Of a DNA stretch of 64,000 nucleotides, positions 3,727-63,528 are shown in pieces. Each line of letters starts with the position of its first letter. Within the stretch, counting starts at the first letter, position 1. The notes beneath the pieces are model-generated. The model worked only from the letters and a program-made list of their open reading frames with translations, was not told the DNA's origin and ran no database searches. The DNA comes from an uncultured Pseudomonadota bacterium (lineage in GTDB: Bacteria; Babelota; Babeliae; Babelales; Vermiphilaceae): positions 25,624 through 89,623 of the forward strand of contig CAZYJE010000006.1 of NCBI GenBank assembly GCA_964647685.1, written 5' to 3'. Made by a program: the position numbers and the translations under genes.

Positions 3727-6132
3727 TTATTTTTTATAATTTTTTATAAATTCAATTATAGAATCCTGATTTAAAGATAAAGAGTCGATAGAAAGTTTAA
3801 TCAGTAGTTGAGCTATTTCGGGAAAATCTGAAGGTCCTTGCCCGCAAATGCCAATATATTTTTTATTTTTGTGAGCTCCAGTAATTGCAAGTTCAAACAT
3901 TTTTTTTACTGCCATGTCTCGTTCATCAAAAATATGGGCAAGAAGGCCAGAATCTCTATCAACACCAAGTGTTAATTGCGTTAAATCATTAGAGCCAATA
4001 GAAAAACCATCAAAAAGTTTACTAAATTCATTTATTAAAATAACATTTGATGGTATTTCACACATCATAATAATTTCTAAGTTATTTTTCCCTTTTTCTA
4101 GGCCTTGATTTTCCATGATTTGTAAAACTTTTTTCCCTTCTTTTACTGTTCTGACAAAAGGAACCATTACTTTAACATTTGTAAGTCCCATCTTTTCTCT
4201 AACTTTTTGCAAAGCTTGGCACTCTAAAATAAAAGCTTCTTTATACTCATTGCTATAATAACGAGATGCTCCTCTGTAGCCAAGCATAGGATTTTCTTCA
4301 TGTGGTTCAAAGTAGGTGCCGCCAATTAAATTTCGGTATTCATTTGTTTTAAAATCAGAAAGTCTAACAATAACAGGCTTTGGGTAAAATGCAGCTGCAA
4401 TCATTCCAATTGAATGGGCGAGTTTATCTATAAAAAACTGTTTTTTATCTTTATATCCTTGTGTAATATCTTCAATGAATTTTTTTATTGAAGCATCAGT
4501 TATTTTTTCTGGTTTCAAAAGGGCAAGTGGATGTATTTTAATATTGTTATTAATAATAAATTCTAATCTTGCAAGGCCGACACCATCATTTGGAAGCATA
4601 GAAAGAGTAAAAGCTCGTTCAGGGTCTGCAATATTAATCATAATTTTTGTAGGCACATCATTTGTCGAAATATTTTGTATTTCGATTTCTTTTTTTTCAA
4701 AAGGTATCGCTCCTTTATAGACAAATCCAGTTGTTCCTTGGCTACAATCAAGTGTTATTGTTGATTCATTTTCAATAGTTTTTGTTGCATTTGCTGTTCC
4801 TACAAGTGCTGGAATACCAAGTTCTCTACTTACAATTGCCGCATGACATGTTCTTCCACCATGGTCTGTTATGATTGCTCCAGCTTTTTTCATAATTGGA
4901 ACCCAGTCAGGATCAGTCATTTGTGTAATAATAATATCACCATCTTTAACAGATTTTATTTCTGTTGGGTCTTTAATAATTCGTGCAATACCAGAAACTA
5001 TTTGCTGACCAATGCTTTGTCCTTCTAAAATTGTTTCTATTTTATTATTAGCGACATTATTTTTTATGAGATGATATTTTGTGAGGATATTCATTTTTTT
5101 TGTTGTATGGACAGTTTCTGGTCGTGCTTGAATTATGTACAGCTTATTGTCTTTGCCATCTTTTGCCCATTCAATATCCATTGGGCACCATGTGCCTTTT
5201 AAGTTTGTATAGTAATCTTCAATGGTTGCAATTGCTTTTGCAAGTTCTATAATTTCTTCATTTTTTAATGAAAAACTTTGTTGCTCTTGTTTTGTTGTCT
5301 CTATTGTTTCGGTTGGATTATCTGTATCATTTGTATAAATAATTTTTATTTTTTTTTCTCCAATATTTTTTTTAATGATACTTGTAAATCCTTGTGCAAG
5401 TGTTGGTTTATGAATAACAAATTCATCAGGTATTACTTCACCTTTTACAATAGATTCGCCTAGTCCATAGGCGGAATTGATAATTATTGCATCTTTAAAG
5501 CCACTTTCTGTATCTAAAGAAAAAGCAACACCAGAAGATGCTAGATCAGAGCGAATCATTTTTTGTACGCCAACTGAAAGTGCAACTTGAAAATGGTCAA
5601 ATCCTTTTTCTGTCCGGTAAACAATTGCTCTATTGGTAAAGAGTGATGCTAAAGCTTTTTTATAAGCTTCAAGAAGGTTTTTGTGTCCAGTGATATTTAA
5701 ATATGTTTCTTGTTGTCCAGCAAAAGAGGCATTAGGTAAGTCTTCTGCAGTTGCAGATGATCTGACGGCAACATCGCAATCATTTTGATTATATTTTTTA
5801 CAAAGATTATCATAGGCTCTTGTAATTTCTTGGGCTAAATCATCTGGAATTTCTCCACTTAAAATTAAAGACCTGACAGAACTGCCAGCTTTTTCTAGTT
5901 GTTCTATATTTAAATGATCTTTTAACTCTTGAAATATAGTTTTTATTTTCTCGTTAAACTGATTATGTTGTATGTAATAGTCATATGCTTGAGCTGTGAC
6001 AGCAAAACCTGTAGGAATAAGGATATTTTTTTTTGTTAGATTGGCAATCATTTGACCAAGTGATGCATTTTTTCCGCCAACAAGTGGAATATCGTTGATT
6101 GTTAAGTTTTCAAATAATTTAATATATTTCAT
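3727..6132 (-). CDS. ppsA: phosphoenolpyruvate synthase (pyruvate, water dikinase)
   Basis: 801 aa. N-terminus VGGKNASLGQM, phospho-His region GGRTCHAAIVSRELGIPALVG and C-terminal PEP-utilising domain FFSIGSNDLTQL-like (FSIGSNDLTQLTLG). Confidence 0.93.
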   Translation of the reverse strand: MKYIKLFENLTINDIPLVGGKNASLGQMIANLTKKNILIPTGFAVTAQAYDYYIQHNQFNEKIKTIFQELKDHLNIEQLEKAGSSVRSLILSGEIPDDLAQEITRAYDNLCKKYNQNDCDVAVRSSATAEDLPNASFAGQQETYLNITGHKNLLEAYKKALASLFTNRAIVYRTEKGFDHFQVALSVGVQKMIRSDLASSGVAFSLDTESGFKDAIIINSAYGLGESIVKGEVIPDEFVIHKPTLAQGFTSIIKKNIGEKKIKIIYTNDTDNPTETIETTKQEQQSFSLKNEEIIELAKAIATIEDYYTNLKGTWCPMDIEWAKDGKDNKLYIIQARPETVHTTKKMNILTKYHLIKNNVANNKIETILEGQSIGQQIVSGIARIIKDPTEIKSVKDGDIIITQMTDPDWVPIMKKAGAIITDHGGRTCHAAIVSRELGIPALVGTANATKTIENESTITLDCSQGTTGFVYKGAIPFEKKEIEIQNISTNDVPTKIMINIADPERAFTLSMLPNDGVGLARLEFIINNNIKIHPLALLKPEKITDASIKKFIEDITQGYKDKKQFFIDKLAHSIGMIAAAFYPKPVIVRLSDFKTNEYRNLIGGTYFEPHEENPMLGYRGASRYYSNEYKEAFILECQALQKVREKMGLTNVKVMVPFVRTVKEGKKVLQIMENQGLEKGKNNLEIIMMCEIPSNVILINEFSKLFDGFSIGSNDLTQLTLGVDRDSGLLAHIFDERDMAVKKMFELAITGAHKNKKYIGICGQGPSDFPEIAQLLIKLSIDSLSLNQDSIIEFIKNYKK

Positions 6133-6201
6133 TTTTTATTCCTCTTTATTAAGAATTCATTAACAAAACTTATGTTTAATTAAAAAAATAATCAACCTAT
6201 T

Positions 6202-6331
6202 CGTCTTTGCGAACTTGCGTAAGCAAGTGTGGCAATCTAGTTAATTTTGTTTTTCTTCCGTCTAATTTATATTTTAATAATTATTGAAGTTATTTAATTA
6301 ACTGGATTGCCACGCTTCGCTCGCAAAGACG
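6202..6331. repeat. GC-rich inverted-repeat element, locus A (U' - 57-nt AT spacer - U); REP/REPIN/MITE-like
   Basis: 6300-6331 (AACTGGATTGCCACGCTTCGCTCGCAAAGACG) is identical to 62442-62473. 6202-6242 is its imperfect inverted partner and carries an inserted 16-nt hairpin. Confidence 0.75.
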
Positions 6332-6514
6332 TAATGATATTTATAACATTAATATTTTTGACTTTTACTGCTAAAGTATACTGTTTCTCTATAGCTTATA
6401 GGCAATAATTGATTTGCAAATCTTATTTTATCTTTTATAATTACAGGTGTTATATAGTTATATGTATGTAACTATTATCGTTTCACTCGTTTTATTCCTT
6501 ATAAAGGAGAATTT

Positions 6515-9804: not shown

Positions 9805-11553
9805 TTAAAGTTGAGCCATTGCGGCTTTTTGTTTGATAGTTGTTTTCTTTTGAGTTGTACTATTTTGTAGTTCTAAACATGCTTTTGTAAATCCATAAAA
9901 TAGTGGACTTGGGTTTGAAAGTCTACTTTTAAACTCTGGGTGCGCTTGTGTCGCTATAAAAAATGGATGATCTTTAATTTCTATAAATTCCATTAATGTT
10001 GTGCCATCAGATCGTTGATGTTTACCAGAAAAAATAAGTCCTTTATTTTCTAGTTGTTGTACAAATGCAGGATTAACTTCATAGCGGTGGCGATGACGCT
10101 CTATAACTGTTGTTGCGCTTACATTTTTATTTTTTAAAAGTTGCTGATCTTGCTCAAGTCTGTTTGTTTTTTTATAAAGGTCTAAAGTTCGTGTATTTTT
10201 TTGAAGCTCGGCATGGTAGCCACCAAGTCGCATTGTACCGCCATAATTTTTTTCATTTAAAATATTTTTTTGATCTGGAAGAACGTCAATAATAGGGTAT
10301 TTTGTTTGCGGGTTAACTTCTGTTGTATGTGCACCAGTCATATTACAAACATTGCGGGCAAACTCTACACACGCAAGTTGCATTCCATAACAAAGCCCTA
10401 AGTACGGTATTTTGTTAACTCGTGCATAATTAATAACATTTATCTTGCCTTCAACACCACTTGTTCCAAAGCCTCCAGGAACAATAATGCCGTCAAGTGT
10501 TTTTAATGTTTGTAGTTTTTCTTTATTGTCTTCAAAATCTTGAGCACTGAGCCACGTAATATTTATTTTTGTTGCAAGTTCAGCTCCACAATGAATAAGC
10601 GACTCATAAATACTTAAGTAACTGTCTTGAATGTCATAGTCACCAAGTGCTAAATATTTGCCGACAATTGCGATATTAACTTGTTTAGATGGCTTTTTTA
10701 TATTATTTACAAGCGTTTTCCAATTAAACAGTTGCAGCTCTTTTTTTGGTTGCAAGTTAAGTCGTTGTATTATTTTTTCTGGCAGTTTTTCTTTCTGAAG
10801 GTGAAGTGGTACTTCATACACGGTTTCAAGATCAGGCGCAGAAATAATATGTTCAAGTTTTATATGAACTGATGTGTTAATTTTCTTTTTTCTTACTTCA
10901 TCGGTACACTTTTCAGATCTGCAAATAATAAAGTCAGGGAAAATTCCTTCTTCGCGAAGTAGTTTTATTGCCTGTTGTGTTGGTTTTGTTTTCATTTCTT
11001 TAATGTGTTTAGGGACAGGCAGATAAGTTACCAAAACATGAGCAACATTTTCAGGCCCTAAGTCACGCTCTAATGTTTTTGCAGCAAAAAGATAGGGAAT
11101 ATTTTCATAATCTCCAATTGTTCCACCAATTTCTATAATTGCAACATCAGCGTCAGAATTTTGTGCTGCATTTTTAATCCGTTCAATAATTTTATCGGGA
11201 ATATGCGGTAAAAATTGAACTGTTTTTCCTAAATAGTGACCTGATCTTTCTTTATCTATAACAGATTTGTAAATTTGCCCTGTAGTTAAACAGTTTTGTT
11301 TTGGAATATCTGTATTTAAAAAACGTTCATAGGTTCCAAGATCTTGGTCTATTTCTCCGCCATCATCGGTTACCCACACTTCACCATGCTCAGTTGGACG
11401 TAATGTGCCTGCATCATAATTAATATATGGATCAACTTTGATGAGCGTTGTTTTTATTCCATGGTCTTTAAGAAGTTTGCCAAGTGATGCGGTAATAACC
11501 CCTTTTCCAACACTAGAAATAACACCACCGGTTACAAAAATAAATTTAGTCAT
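9805..11553 (-). CDS. pyrG: CTP synthase
   Basis: The N-terminal MTKFIFVTGGVISSVGKG is the synthetase P-loop. The GATase domain shows GLCYGMQL and HRHRYEVN. ORF track starts at 11568; I prefer the ATG at 11553 by analogy with other PyrG N-termini (start uncertain). There is a ~20-aa C-terminal tail beyond the usual end. Confidence 0.93.
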   Translation of the reverse strand: MTKFIFVTGGVISSVGKGVITASLGKLLKDHGIKTTLIKVDPYINYDAGTLRPTEHGEVWVTDDGGEIDQDLGTYERFLNTDIPKQNCLTTGQIYKSVIDKERSGHYLGKTVQFLPHIPDKIIERIKNAAQNSDADVAIIEIGGTIGDYENIPYLFAAKTLERDLGPENVAHVLVTYLPVPKHIKEMKTKPTQQAIKLLREEGIFPDFIICRSEKCTDEVRKKKINTSVHIKLEHIISAPDLETVYEVPLHLQKEKLPEKIIQRLNLQPKKELQLFNWKTLVNNIKKPSKQVNIAIVGKYLALGDYDIQDSYLSIYESLIHCGAELATKINITWLSAQDFEDNKEKLQTLKTLDGIIVPGGFGTSGVEGKINVINYARVNKIPYLGLCYGMQLACVEFARNVCNMTGAHTTEVNPQTKYPIIDVLPDQKNILNEKNYGGTMRLGGYHAELQKNTRTLDLYKKTNRLEQDQQLLKNKNVSATTVIERHRHRYEVNPAFVQQLENKGLIFSGKHQRSDGTTLMEFIEIKDHPFFIATQAHPEFKSRLSNPSPLFYGFTKACLELQNSTTQKKTTIKQKAAMAQL

Positions 11554-31654: not shown

Positions 31655-33124
31655 ATGAAAAGCAGCAAAAAAATAGTAAAAATAGTTGGTTTTTCAGTAG
31701 TTTTGATAAGTCTTGGTTTTATACTTCTAAAAAAAACAAATTATTCTATTTGTTCAAGGTTGGTTGTACCATCAAATCAAAAAGATTTTTTAAAGGTTGT
31801 ATCAGAAAAAGATAATATTGCCCCTCTTGTCATTATAGGTTCTGGGCCGGCGGGTCTTTCAGCTGCAATTTATGGTGCTCGGCAAAGTATCAAAACCTTA
31901 GTAATAGAAGGCAGTGAGCCTGGTGGGCAACTGATGCAAACATCATATGTAGAAAATTGGCCTGGAAAAACAAAGGCTTTAGGCTCAGAAATAATTGGAG
32001 ATATAAGGTCACAAGCAAAATCTTTGGGTGCAGAATTTTTGCAAGATACTGTAATGAATATAGATACCTCTTGTTATCCTTTTAAAATTATAACAGCAGA
32101 CAAAAAGCAGCTATATGCACTTTCTATTGTTTTGGCTACTGGTTCAACACCAAGAACATTGGGTATCGAGGGTGAAAAAAAATATTGGGGCAGTGGTGTA
32201 ACAACATGTGCAATTTGTGATGCACCATTTTTCAAAAATAAAGATGTTGTTGTAGTAGGAGGCGGTGATTCAGCTGTAGAAGAGGCTATTCAACTTGCTC
32301 CCTATGCAAAAAAAATATCAATTTTAGTTAGAAAAGATTCAATGCGTGCAGCTCCAACAATGCAAGATAGATTGAGTGGTTATCCAAATATATCAATAAA
32401 CTATAATACCGAGCTAAAAAAGATCATGGGAGATACAAACCATGTCAATAATATTGATATTTATAATAATAAAACTAAAGCAACTAAAAATATACCTATG
32501 GACGGTGTTTTTTTAGCAATTGGACATACGCCAAATACTCAATTATTAAAAGATGCTGTTGAAACTAATAGTAATGGTTATATAAAAGTTAAAGATCGAT
32601 CGCAAAAAACATCTATACCAGGTATTTTTGCAGCTGGTGATGTGGAAGATTTTCAATACCGCCAGGCTGGTGTAGCTTCTGCTAGCGGTATCAAAGCATC
32701 TCTTGATGTAGCAGAGTTTTTAACACATATTGGATTTGATGATTATGCTACAAAACAGTTAGAAGATACATTTTTTGTTCTTGATGGAACTCAAAAGAGT
32801 GCACAGCTAAAATCTGTTAGTAGCCTAGAAGAGCTTGATAAAATTGTAAAACAGTCAGAAAAGGCTATTATTCTTGATTTCTATACACAATATTGTCCAT
32901 CATGTTTACAAATGCTTCCTCATTTAGCGACTGTAGCACAAGAATATACAGATAAGGTCGTTGTATTTAAAGTTGATGCAGAAGAATCTTTTGATATAGT
33001 TGAAAGGTTCAATGTACACAAAGTTCCAACTATTATTGCTTTGAAAAACTCAAAAGAAATAGCTCGAGTAAAAAAAGCGATGAAAAAACAAGAAATACGA
33101 GCATTTATAGATAATCTTGCTTAA
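31655..33124 (+). CDS. trxB: thioredoxin reductase fused to a C-terminal thioredoxin domain, with N-terminal hydrophobic anchor
   Basis: GSGPAGLSAAIYGAR, redox CAIC (CAICDAPFF), GGGDSAVEEA and GIFAAGDV, then a linker and a Trx fold with CPSC (YTQYCPSCLQM...VPTIIALK). N-terminus: KIVKIVGFSVVLISLGFILL. Confidence 0.88.
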   Translation: MKSSKKIVKIVGFSVVLISLGFILLKKTNYSICSRLVVPSNQKDFLKVVSEKDNIAPLVIIGSGPAGLSAAIYGARQSIKTLVIEGSEPGGQLMQTSYVENWPGKTKALGSEIIGDIRSQAKSLGAEFLQDTVMNIDTSCYPFKIITADKKQLYALSIVLATGSTPRTLGIEGEKKYWGSGVTTCAICDAPFFKNKDVVVVGGGDSAVEEAIQLAPYAKKISILVRKDSMRAAPTMQDRLSGYPNISINYNTELKKIMGDTNHVNNIDIYNNKTKATKNIPMDGVFLAIGHTPNTQLLKDAVETNSNGYIKVKDRSQKTSIPGIFAAGDVEDFQYRQAGVASASGIKASLDVAEFLTHIGFDDYATKQLEDTFFVLDGTQKSAQLKSVSSLEELDKIVKQSEKAIILDFYTQYCPSCLQMLPHLATVAQEYTDKVVVFKVDAEESFDIVERFNVHKVPTIIALKNSKEIARVKKAMKKQEIRAFIDNLA

Positions 33125-61199: not shown

Positions 61200-62324
61200 T
61201 TAGTTATTTGCTGTTGGAGAAACCGGCATAACCAAATAAACCAAGTTGAAATTTTCTGTTTTTGTTTCAAAAATAATTGGTCGAGATGAATCTTTTAAAG
61301 AAAATCCAATAGTACTATCAGAAAAAACTTGGAGTCCATTTAATAAGTAAGGAGCATAAAAACGAATATTCATATTTTCACCATCAAATTTTTCCAGCGG
61401 TACATTTTCTTCTAGTTTACCAACTTCTTTATTTTGCATAGACACATTCATATAATCAGATGTAAAATCAAATTTTGTAGCAATAAATTGTCCAGAAAGT
61501 AAACAAGAAGACCTTCTTAATGTTTTTATAAAATGAGTTCTGTCTACCGTTGCTCCAACAAATCCTTTTTTATCTAAAATTGGTTGATACTCAGGAAATG
61601 GATCAACAAGTAATTTTGTAAAAAAGTTAAATGATTCGCCAGAAAAAACTAACTGATTATTGCAAACTCCAAGAAATACATGAGCTGAATTAGAACCTTC
61701 CAAAATCTTTTTTAGTTCAAAAATTGCTCGCCTTGGCAGTAACCATTTTTTATCTTGCTCTAATGTATATTTAGATGAAGTAACTTGCGCCAAACAATGA
61801 CCATCGGTTGCTGTCATTTTAAGCTGATCACCAGAAATCTCTAAATACAAACCGTTAAGAGCTGTGTTTGAATTATTTTGCGGAATCAAAAAAGCAACTT
61901 TACTAAGAATTTCAAGCAAAAAAGATGACTCCATTTCCATCAAATTTTCTATGCGCTCTGGAAACGGTGGAAACTCTTGCGCATCTTTAATCTTAAGAGC
62001 CAAATTTACTGATCCAGACTTAATCAAAAGTTGATCATTTTTCATGTAAAATTCAATTTCACCATCAAGCTCTTTTACAAAGTCAAAAATTCGACGCCCT
62101 GAAACTAAAAAAGATTTTGGCTCTTCGATATCGCTACTTTTGACTAAATAACTTGCTTGTAGACTAATTTCTAAATCTGTACTTTTAAGTACTAATTCTT
62201 TGTGCCCGATATGAAATAAAATAGATGTTGTCGTATCAAGTGTCGTACGTTTTGTACAAATAGGTTGCATAGAAGATAGAATTGCCATTAAAGATTTTTG
62301 ATCTACAACAAATTTATTTTTCAT
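61200..62324 (-). CDS. dnaN: DNA polymerase III beta sliding clamp
   Basis: 374 aa with a three-domain repeat pattern; LNGLYLEISGDQLKMTATDGHCLA and the C-terminal YLVMPV are typical DnaN. Confidence 0.93.
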   Translation of the reverse strand: MKNKFVVDQKSLMAILSSMQPICTKRTTLDTTTSILFHIGHKELVLKSTDLEISLQASYLVKSSDIEEPKSFLVSGRRIFDFVKELDGEIEFYMKNDQLLIKSGSVNLALKIKDAQEFPPFPERIENLMEMESSFLLEILSKVAFLIPQNNSNTALNGLYLEISGDQLKMTATDGHCLAQVTSSKYTLEQDKKWLLPRRAIFELKKILEGSNSAHVFLGVCNNQLVFSGESFNFFTKLLVDPFPEYQPILDKKGFVGATVDRTHFIKTLRRSSCLLSGQFIATKFDFTSDYMNVSMQNKEVGKLEENVPLEKFDGENMNIRFYAPYLLNGLQVFSDSTIGFSLKDSSRPIIFETKTENFNLVYLVMPVSPTANN

Positions 62325-62441
62325 ATGATACCTGCCATGTTCAATGTACTAATATTTTTTATTTATAATCCTTCATTAGTATAATAAAGAACAAAAAAAT
62401 AGAAAGAAAATTAAGACATAATGATTGCTTCGCTCTTAATA

Positions 62442-62577
62442 AACTGGATTGCCACGCTTCGCTCGCAAAGACGAAAAAAGAATATTTATTTTCTATATAC
62501 ATATGATTTTTTAAATAAGAAAATAACCAAGTAACCTGTCTTTGCGAGCCTATAAAAATAGGCGCGGCAATCCAGTT
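62442..62577. repeat. GC-rich inverted-repeat element, locus B (U - 64-nt AT spacer - U')
   Basis: 62442-62473 is identical to 6300-6331. 62538-62577 (GTCTTTGCGA[GCCTATAAAAATAGGC]GCGGCAATCCAGTT) is the inverted partner and carries a different inserted hairpin. Confidence 0.75.
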
Positions 62578-62619
62578 TATTTTATAATATTTCATTTAAA
62601 AACTAAAAAATAAAAAACA

Positions 62620-63528
62620 TCACGAACGTGAATGTTTTTTGTCATAAACTTCACGTAAATAATTTGTATCCAAATGTGTATAAATTTGCACTGTCGATAA
62701 ATTTTCGTGCCCTAAAAGCAGCTGTAAAGACCTTAGGTCGGCTCCATTTTTCAGCATATGCGTTGCAAGCGAGTGCCGCAACTGATGGGGAGAAATCACT
62801 TTATCGCTGCCCGTTTTTTCCCACAGCTCTTTTAAAATAAACCAAAACGACTGACGAGAAATTGGCTTCATTTTGCCACCATAATAAACAGGGAACAAAT
62901 AATTACCTTTATTATGTTTTTTGCCACCATCTAAAAATTTATGCAAAACATCGGTAATATATTTTTTAAGCAAATCTAAAATAGAATCTGGAATTGGAAT
63001 ATGCCTACCCTTTCCACCCTTTCCTGCAACGGCAAGGACTTTAGAATCAAAATGAACTTGAGAAATAGTGAGTGTTGTAAGCTCTGTAATACGCATACCA
63101 GAAACATACAGTAAAAAAAGCATTACCTTGTTGCGAACGCCAATATCTGTTGTATCAAGCTCTGCAACTTGAAACAATTTTTTTAGTTCCAATTCGCTTA
63201 AATAACGTGGCAATTTTTTGTCTATTTTAGGGAAATGCAAATCGGTAGCATGATTTTTTGTTCCTAAATATTTGCTTGTGTAAGAAAAAAAAACCTTTAA
63301 AGAAGAAATTTTGCGAGCCATAGTACGAGCACTAAGATTCAGCTCTTTTAAATGGTACAAAAAACTTTTAACCTGCTCAGCTGTACAACTTTCAACAACT
63401 GCCTTATGAGTAATATGTAAAAAAGTAATCAGTTGCTTAATGTCCCGTTTGTAAGCATCAAAGGTATTTTTAGAAACTCGCTTTTCTGTAAGTAAAAATG
63501 TTTCAAAACGCATCAATGCCATACTCAT
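62620..63528 (-). CDS. xerD: tyrosine site-specific recombinase XerD
   Basis: N-terminal SAM-like domain (FETFLLTEKRVSKNTFDAYKRDIKQL), RQSFWFILKE (compare XerD RQTFWHRIKH, from memory), and catalytic HQLRHSLATHML...LLGHENLSTVQIYTH. Confidence 0.85.
   Translation of the reverse strand: MSMALMRFETFLLTEKRVSKNTFDAYKRDIKQLITFLHITHKAVVESCTAEQVKSFLYHLKELNLSARTMARKISSLKVFFSYTSKYLGTKNHATDLHFPKIDKKLPRYLSELELKKLFQVAELDTTDIGVRNKVMLFLLYVSGMRITELTTLTISQVHFDSKVLAVAGKGGKGRHIPIPDSILDLLKKYITDVLHKFLDGGKKHNKGNYLFPVYYGGKMKPISRQSFWFILKELWEKTGSDKVISPHQLRHSLATHMLKNGADLRSLQLLLGHENLSTVQIYTHLDTNYLREVYDKKHSRS

Follow-up and report, generated by a model that had tools for sequence, protein, structure and literature searches.

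The closest described counterparts of the element analysed here, a pair of GC-rich hairpin units (locus B) in the spacer between an xerD-type gene and dnaN of a Dependentiae (TM6) bacterium, are the SRM/NTS hairpin motifs and their Ssn nucleases. SsnA of Neisseria meningitidis is a 94-aa single-domain GIY-YIG protein that binds its motif, NTS (CGTCATTCCCGCGMAVGCGGGAATCYRG), only as single-stranded DNA (ssDNA) and cuts it a few nucleotides upstream (Chenal et al. 2025, Nat Commun 16:2388, PMC11893778). SsnA and three homologues are specific to the motif strand in single-stranded form, and double-stranded DNA (dsDNA), RNA, and the complementary strand are ignored (PMC11893778). In mutagenesis experiments, the GTC before the palindrome governed cutting and the C after the palindrome governed binding, and the loop could be removed, replaced, or extended with extra paired DNA with cutting retained (PMC11893778). 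The ssn genes are typically framed by their own motif, and 2 per cent of NTS copies lie inside genes (PMC11893778). The window, i.e. the whole 64,000-nt stretch of DNA that was analysed (C6:25624-89623; positions given without a contig are those of the window), comes from a 0.90-Mb genome with 30.7 per cent GC that is assembled in 48 contigs and is 96.6 per cent complete.

We consider it probable that a dispersed hairpin repeat of the SRM/NTS type is represented at locus B by two independent copies, each with its tail module, and that the genome encodes a matching Ssn-type nuclease. The unit of this repeat shares with the described motifs a directional hairpin of ~28-40 nt, a 5' (C)GTC(A/T)T tag, a 3' ATC-YAG, and a C right after the palindrome; 5' CGTCWTT and 3' AATCYRG are common to the units and NTS. 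Like SRM/NTS motifs, the units occur in many copies, almost all of them intergenic, accept extra paired DNA at the loop position, and have a patchy, cross-phylum distribution that is enriched in host-associated bacteria. As in the described systems, the gene of a ~95-aa nuclease with a GIY-YIG domain only lies between two inward-facing units. The units are 28-38 nt long, or 62-72 nt with a nested insert, and the SRM criterion is a hairpin-forming imperfect palindrome of 20-50 nt.

A two-half search of the whole genome recovered 88 units on 13 contigs, which leaves no room for a mere two loci produced by local duplication, an alternative that the first-pass annotation of the window had raised. 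All 88 units are located between open reading frames (ORFs) of at least 100 aa, which cover 87 per cent of the genome (13 per cent is non-coding). The units have an invariant clamp, (C)GTC-WTTGC-GA...GYG-GCAAT-CYAG, in which GTC is essentially universal, with a C before it (CGTC) in 78 units, and GCAAT-C is at least 90 per cent conserved. There are two head variants, with 38 T-type units (GTCTTTGCGA...AATCCAG) and 50 A-type units (GTCATTGCGA...AATCT[ACT]); T-type units end in CCAG or CTAG, and A-type units end in CT[ACT], with YRG only partly kept. By length, the units fall into a 28-nt class with a GCGWAGC core, a 36-38-nt class with a 6-bp distal stem and a 3-4-nt loop, and a 62-72-nt class, in which a second repeat is nested in the loop. 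Units that neighbour each other within 300 nt form 16 convergent, 14 divergent, and 11 tandem pairs, and there are many solo units besides; because of this mixed geometry, it is the single unit, not the pair, that is the module, as had been proposed from the window alone.

Within the window, four half-unit patterns were found, versus 0.04-0.10 expected from shuffled sequences, and none of 100 shuffles reached four. With units written in the direction (C)GTC...CCAGTT, unit U (AACTGGATTGCCACGCTTCGCTCGCAAAGAC(G); 62442-62473) lies on the minus strand, and the plus-strand letters, AACTGGATTGCCACGCTTCGCTCGCAAAGACG, show a unit in reverse complement. U is a short T-type unit of the 28-nt class, and its minus-strand sequence is C-GTCTTTGCGA-GCGAAGC-GTGGCAATCCAGTT, CGTC tag included. 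Unit U' (62538-62577, plus strand; GTCTTTGCGAGCCTATAAAAATAGGCGCGGCAATCCAGTT) is a mid-length T-type unit of the 37-nt class with the parts GTCTTTGCGA-[GCCTAT-AAAA-ATAGGC]-GCGGCAATCCAGTT; where U has GCGAAGC, U' carries at the loop position a distal helix that is a perfect hairpin of 6 bp with a 4-nt loop. The two units also differ in the base before GTC, which is C in U and T in U' (TGTC). U and U' form a divergent pair, their 5' ends facing each other over an AT-rich linker of 64 nt (62474-62537). Locus A (6203-6332), the other locus of the same repeat family discussed here, is a convergent pair with 3' ends facing: a 37-nt T-type unit (6203-6242, plus strand) with the distal helix ACTTGC-GTAA-GCAAGT and a 28-nt T-type unit (6300-6332, minus strand) that is identical to U. 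A strand flip cannot interconvert the two arrangements, and the spacers of loci A and B have no detectable shared sequence. On all of these points (the exact coordinates and sequences of U, spacer, and U', the reversed arm order, the unrelated spacers, and a different perfect hairpin inserted in U') the first-pass annotation was accurate.

Each unit of locus B is followed by a tail, and the two tails are unlike each other. On the minus strand, U continues into tail module 2 (62405-62441; TTTATTAAGAGCGAAGCAATCATTATGTCTTA, beginning TTTATTAAGAGCGAAGCAATCATTATG...), whose consensus after other units is TTYATTAAGRGYRAARCTAYC..., and U' is followed on the plus strand by tail module 1 (62578-62623; TATTTTATAATATTTCATTTAAAAAC..., beginning TATTTTATAATATTTCAT...), which extends to the xerD stop codon. 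Both modules recur behind other units in the genome. The segment GATTGCTTCGCTC at 62423-62435, which had been taken for a decayed copy of the core of U, sits within tail module 2 and recurs with it, e.g. at C31:20350-20373; it is thus part of a conserved module and not a degenerate unit. U' and tail module 1 are together 84 per cent identical to C31:1512-1598, and this match places the right edge of the repeat at ~62623, at the xerD stop codon. The entire locus B composite, spacer included, is homologous to C5:5247-5387 (77 per cent over 145 nt), with the 64-nt linker matching the linker of that second composite (C5:5291-5352). Locus B is no assembly artefact: it is present at 100 per cent identity in two independent public assemblies, and two others end within U, which is what a multi-copy repeat would be expected to cause.

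The likely partner of the repeat, judging from its sequence and surroundings, is a 95-aa Ssn-type GIY-YIG nuclease (C18:31739-32026; PF01541, E 3e-14, no other domain), whose gene stands between two units identical to U. Specifically, units at 31674 (plus) and 32041 (minus) both face inward toward the gene, the 29-nt cores of both are identical to U, and for the upstream unit (C18:31674-31708) the identity with U extends over 35 nt. Both tails of locus B reappear in this nuclease cassette, tail module 1 as the leader of the gene and tail module 2 at its 3' end. Tyr7, Tyr18, and Glu65 of the protein correspond to Y6, Y17, and E64 of SsnA when matched by a +1 position offset, not by alignment. 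Homologues of 87-100 aa number more than 1800 across phyla, and homologues at 55 per cent identity have flanking motifs that conform to the published SRM pattern; a PDB sequence search returned only uncharacterised UPF0213 GIY-YIG proteins with weak E-values. Among the Dependentiae relatives there are eight close homologues (46-67 per cent identity), six of which are framed on both sides by inward-facing GTC-tagged hairpins with stems that differ by lineage; of the remaining two, one (in G012) has a unit downstream only, and the downstream flank of the other (in G024) is unclear. In G033 and G020, the motifs flanking the homologue fit the published pattern, and two-sided framing by units is also found around family members in other phyla.

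The distributions of motif and nuclease overlap. The motif is patchily present in five of 41 relatives, and a strong nuclease homologue was found in four of these five versus five of the 36 other relatives (Fisher p = 0.006). The exact 26-mer core GTCWTTGCGAGCGWAGCGNNGCAATC occurs at more than 120 loci in many phyla (fewer than one expected by chance, by our own estimate), among them Alpha- and Gammaproteobacteria, Chloroflexota, Bacteroidota, and Cyanobacteria. Its hosts include Bradyrhizobium, sphingomonads, Legionellales, Coxiellaceae, Dehalococcoidia, Bacteroidales, and Calothrix, and their genomes range from 30 per cent to more than 60 per cent GC. A nuclease homologue at E <= 1e-10 is present in 37 of 50 motif-bearing genomes from other phyla versus seven of 36 motif-negative relatives (p = 8e-7). 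Four fetched loci hold the nuclease gene, and distances were measured at three of them: in two, the motif lies within 10-12 nt of the gene, and in the third, a motif match is 1.2 kb away and other hairpins flank the gene.

An alignment of 18 distinct mid-length units separates two parts of the hairpin. No variation is seen in the outer helix (TTGC/GCAA, with an added A-T in A-type units). The distal helix has changes on both sides in five of its six pairs and is paired in 98 per cent of cells (95 per cent for the helices overall), and its covariation score of 0.41, versus 0.21 in shuffles, was reached by none of 500 shuffles, with slid controls at or below 0.15. Since the outer helix is invariant and the distal helix covaries, the unit is an invariant, sequence-specific clamp that carries a sequence-free, structure-conserved part. 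The first-pass annotation had described a modular, variable mini-hairpin that keeps its ability to pair, and these compensatory changes bear it out. The tolerance of the NTS loop for added stems (PMC11893778) explains such a mini-hairpin, and U and U' differ exactly there. We also observed nuclease-flanking units with long extra stems at the loop position, e.g. GTCGTTGCGACCGTGTCCGTCGAAGCC...GCGAAGCAATCCAGG, in G023 (L131:1240-1500 and the downstream flank), L024, and L064, and these indicate that loop extension is general in this family.

Covariation of this kind is also what a structured RNA would display, and the units could in principle be terminators, mRNA-stabilising hairpins, or small RNAs at the xerD 3' end or in the dnaN leader. 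U' lies 43 nt past the xerD stop codon, and spacers between convergent genes hold a modest excess of units (26 of 83 versus 19 per cent of intergenic length). However, unit orientation is random relative to neighbouring genes (41 versus 43 for the gene ahead, 49 versus 38 for the gene behind), and it is likewise unbiased with respect to GC skew (44 versus 38, p = 0.58), which leaves a replication-strand or transcription-linked role unsupported. No T-run terminator was called in 62250-62700, and the lack of strand and gene-direction bias together with the lack of a terminator signature argues against a transcriptional role. In the window, two tRNAs were the only Rfam matches at the gathering threshold. 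The outer stem does not covary, and its invariant sequence points to sequence-specific recognition by a protein. The 26-mer remains unchanged across phyla whose genomes span 30 per cent to more than 60 per cent GC, which fits a mobile DNA site better than an RNA. Moreover, a conserved promoter-like block of dnaN lies downstream of the element (see below). We therefore judge a structured RNA to be very unlikely.

Invariant outer arms would likewise be expected of dsDNA-binding sites for a host protein, for instance the Xer recombinase encoded alongside, or a factor of the nucleoid or of replication, and locus B adjoins both xerD and dnaN, with a candidate dif site nearby. On the minus strand, dnaN (61200-62324) encodes the 374-aa beta subunit of DNA polymerase III, with best named matches in Candidatus Dependentiae, and the xerC/xerD-type gene (62620-63528) encodes a 302-aa tyrosine recombinase. 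The xerD-dnaN adjacency is ancestral and is found without the element in relatives; throughout the family the two genes are neighbours by synteny, and the recombinase is not the likely partner of the repeat. The 88 copies on 13 contigs have no link to xerD, and presence in so few relatives (five of 41) does not fit a core host function. We give the host-protein explanation almost no credence.

The spacer itself points to an insertion. It measures 298 nt here versus 86-103 nt in five relatives (G002, G003, G025, L171, and L173), and the extra DNA is the repeat composite of ~215 nt; the earlier statement that the element fills the dnaN/xerD spacer holds. Among closer relatives, whose DnaN is 75-76 per cent identical, two have 'empty' spacers of ~100 nt, two have unrelated fillers, and none has the element. 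Judging from this comparison, the composite was inserted in this lineage specifically; it landed between the stop codon of xerD and the dnaN promoter block and disrupted neither. The ~80 nt adjoining dnaN retain a TTGyyC-N5-TATACT block ~45-55 nt upstream of the dnaN ATG (TTGTTC-N5-TATACT at 62378-62397, minus strand, in the window), and related blocks lie at the same distance in the short-spacer relatives. We regard this block as a candidate promoter of dnaN; the gap between its boxes is unusually short, and a sigma-70 consensus scan did not call it. Because the conserved promoter-like block separates the element from dnaN, the repeat is probably not in the dnaN leader and was probably inserted just upstream of the dnaN promoter.

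Among classical mobile palindromes, the units most resemble the REP/BIME/REPIN elements of Enterobacteria and Pseudomonas, which are also short imperfect palindromes confined to intergenic DNA, form mosaic arrays with conserved linkers, and are thought to be bound as ssDNA hairpins by one dedicated enzyme whose gene is flanked by the repeats. On that model, the units would be REPs mobilised by a RAYT (a Y1 HUH transposase), with U and U' a REPIN that folds as one long ssDNA hairpin. In favour of it, the units are palindromes in intergenic DNA with BIME-like clustering, and the U/U' pair can form a single long foldback (-35 to -37 kcal/mol, z about -9). However, no match to Y1_Tnp (PF01797) was found in this 96.6 per cent complete genome, versus matches in six of 14 control genomes, and the gene framed by units encodes a GIY-YIG nuclease rather than a Y1 HUH transposase. 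The conserved head of the units is CGTC, not the GTAG/GTGG of REPs, and inverted doublets do not predominate among the convergent, divergent, tandem, and solo arrangements counted above. A RAYT-mobilised REP is thus largely refuted, with no Y1/RAYT gene in the genome, and we regard this reading as extremely improbable. The first-pass annotation had suggested a protein recognition site or a mobile REP-type unit, with Xer or RAYT proteins as candidate partners; the class of idea holds, but neither of the named partners is a likely one.

Another possibility is that the units are terminal inverted repeats of miniature inverted-repeat transposable elements (MITEs) derived from a conventional DDE insertion sequence. 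This possibility finds some support in convergent gene-less pairs with conserved internal tails, e.g. at C43:33070-33239 and C43:52203-52407. Against it, units also occur solo, in tandem, and, as at locus B, divergently, and no target-site duplication is evident. The 95-aa nuclease is the only gene seen between inverted units, although no search for DDE transposases was made. Overall, we consider derivation from a DDE element highly improbable and favour a repeat of the SRM/NTS type with an Ssn-type nuclease.

Several observations weigh against this preferred explanation. The stem here, WTTGC-GA...GYG-GCAAT, differs from that of NTS (ATTCCCGCG...CGCGGGAAT) and is unlike every motif tested by Chenal et al. 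(PMC11893778), who found SsnA activity to be abolished when the palindrome was changed with the hairpin kept. The published pattern, HGTCWYN(0-2)YYVSBRHN(0-5)WNVSBRGN(0-2)RNCYNB, recovers the canonical NTS, but not one of the 88 units and nothing else in the genome (simulated genomes gave 0-2 matches); the pattern is a search tool and not a biological definition. The folding energy of a short unit alone is no better than that of shuffles (nearest-neighbour DNA parameters, z = -0.3). No homologue at E <= 1e-10 was found in 13 of the 50 motif-bearing genomes of other phyla. The same holds for G026, a relative from another family that is 95 per cent complete: it has dense unit arrays and no detected homologue of the 95-aa nuclease. 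The A-type units (GTCATTGC...AATCT[ACT]), which make up 50 of the 88, do not flank the nuclease gene and may be relics of another enzyme. Finally, no presence/absence polymorphism of units was seen between close strains, so that any current mobility would be conjectural. Given that a palindrome change abolishes SsnA activity and that the stem here is different, recognition of the units would have to be by a co-evolved enzyme.

The comparison with Neisseria has other limits. The host here is a Dependentiae bacterium with a 0.9-Mb genome, and its units come in three length classes, including units with a second repeat family in the loop. A link to transformation, as shown in Neisseria, would be conjectural here. 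In searches of the literature, peptide strings such as LRFARND and VIASEAKQ retrieved no papers, 10-14-mers gave only chance primer matches, and no paper following up SsnA turned up beyond the original one.

We infer the binding and cleavage activities of the 95-aa protein, the means of spread of the repeat, and any role in the cell from the described systems. Replication, repair, recombination, or DNA uptake would expose the motif strand as ssDNA, and the strand would fold. The nuclease is predicted to bind the hairpin together with the C that follows it and to nick the ssDNA a few nucleotides 5' of the GTC tag, and to ignore dsDNA, RNA, and the complementary strand. If it cuts as SsnA does (PMC11893778), both predicted nick sites of locus B would fall within the 64-nt linker, one on each strand. 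The nuclease gene with its two inward-facing units may constitute a small cassette resembling an insertion sequence, and gene-less units and pairs may be its REP- or MITE-like offspring, accumulated in non-coding DNA. The genome encodes homologues of ComEC and DprA, both of which are nearly universal genes, and by analogy with Neisseria a role in restricting incoming ssDNA is possible.

Insertion of one mobile sequence into the hairpin loop of another has a precedent in the insertion sequences IS1397 and ISKpn1, whose targets are the loops of REP/BIME palindromic units. The sequence nested in the long units here, which we call module 2, has the form CCGTCTTC-variable hairpin-CGCCGTGACARG; unlike IS1397 and ISKpn1, it is a gene-less motif of ~33 nt and not a full insertion sequence, and its insertion is putative. 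Module 2 is present in ~30 copies in the genome, of which at least 10-16 lie inside the loops of SRM units, always in the orientation of the host unit (e.g. C39:34079-34149, C23:16374-16445, and C37:14205-14275; another copy of the module is at C37:14306-14336). The distal stems of the units that host it are of at least three or four kinds (ATTTGC, ACTTGC, GCTTAC, and GCTTTT), which suggests repeated loop-targeted insertion. Other copies adjoin ...AATCCAG or end right before the ATG of a gene.

We also observed a second small GIY-YIG gene, of 79 aa, located ~200 nt after tRNA-Ser(GGA) (L127:1209-1740 = C18:33434-33965). Its product has only the catalytic core in common with the 95-aa nuclease (42 per cent identity over 43 aa), and the gene is flanked by module 2-like motifs, CCGTCGCTCGAAGAGCTATGGCGTGATG upstream and CCGTCTCCGCTTTCTAAGCTACTCCGTGATAAG downstream; gene and motifs may represent a second nuclease/motif pair. 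That the genome hosts two such co-resident pairs of GIY-YIG nuclease and hairpin motif, one motif parasitising the other, is a tentative idea that we think is probably wrong. If true, motifs of ~30 nt would be mobile as ssDNA and target exposed hairpin loops, which would be direct evidence for how Ssn-type repeats spread.

Other features of the family deserve mention. Contig ends at C43:14-209 and C9:15781-16023, as well as at L166:1-30 and L168:1-30 of Logan assemblies of the same organism, lie inside repeats, and the family probably causes much of the fragmentation of the assembly. Some T-type units share a conserved 5' flank of 40 nt, GGTTCTGTTGACATTTGACTATAATAATTTTTCCTATTC, with perfect TTGACA and TATAAT hexamers 6 nt apart (C43:33030-33069, C43:52163-52202, C43:72556-72595, C16:2622-2660, and C19:48876-48915). 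The arrays of G026 (L163:1560-2440, 5360-6160, and 9916-10090; L164:940-3030) are BIME-like and combine three types of GTC-tagged units: GTCTTTGCGAACGCATGTGAAGCAATCCAG, GTCTTTGCGAGCGCAGCGCGGCAATCCAG, and, on the other strand, GTCATCACGAGGAG...CGACGTGGTGATCCAG.

The repeat also accounts for an apparent gene. A 78-aa ORF on the minus strand (62359-62595; MKYYKINWIAAP...VFASEAWQSS...) reads through both units, with its ATG supplied on the opposite strand by ATTTCAT in tail module 1. It has no Pfam match, and its likeness elsewhere in the genome is confined to repeat copies, where it is broken by stop codons; its earlier designation as spurious is therefore upheld.

Taken as an SRM/NTS-type repeat, the GC-rich pair before dnaN is explained as selfish or domesticated repeat DNA and not as a site of replication or Xer control, and both the 78-aa ORF and cross-phylum ORFs of the 'VFASEA.QSS / LRFARND' type are to be flagged as spurious. 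The SRM/Ssn architecture is already known; new here are the host phylum and a stem subtype that goes undetected by the published pattern. Since an abundant subtype escapes that pattern, published counts of motif-bearing genomes would be underestimates. The units of 28, 37, and ~70 nt form a natural loop-extension series that, together with the new candidate enzyme/site pair, may be of use for ssDNA tools. For the family as a whole, the pairing of hairpin motif and small GIY-YIG nuclease would extend to the Dependentiae, an obligate intracellular phylum.

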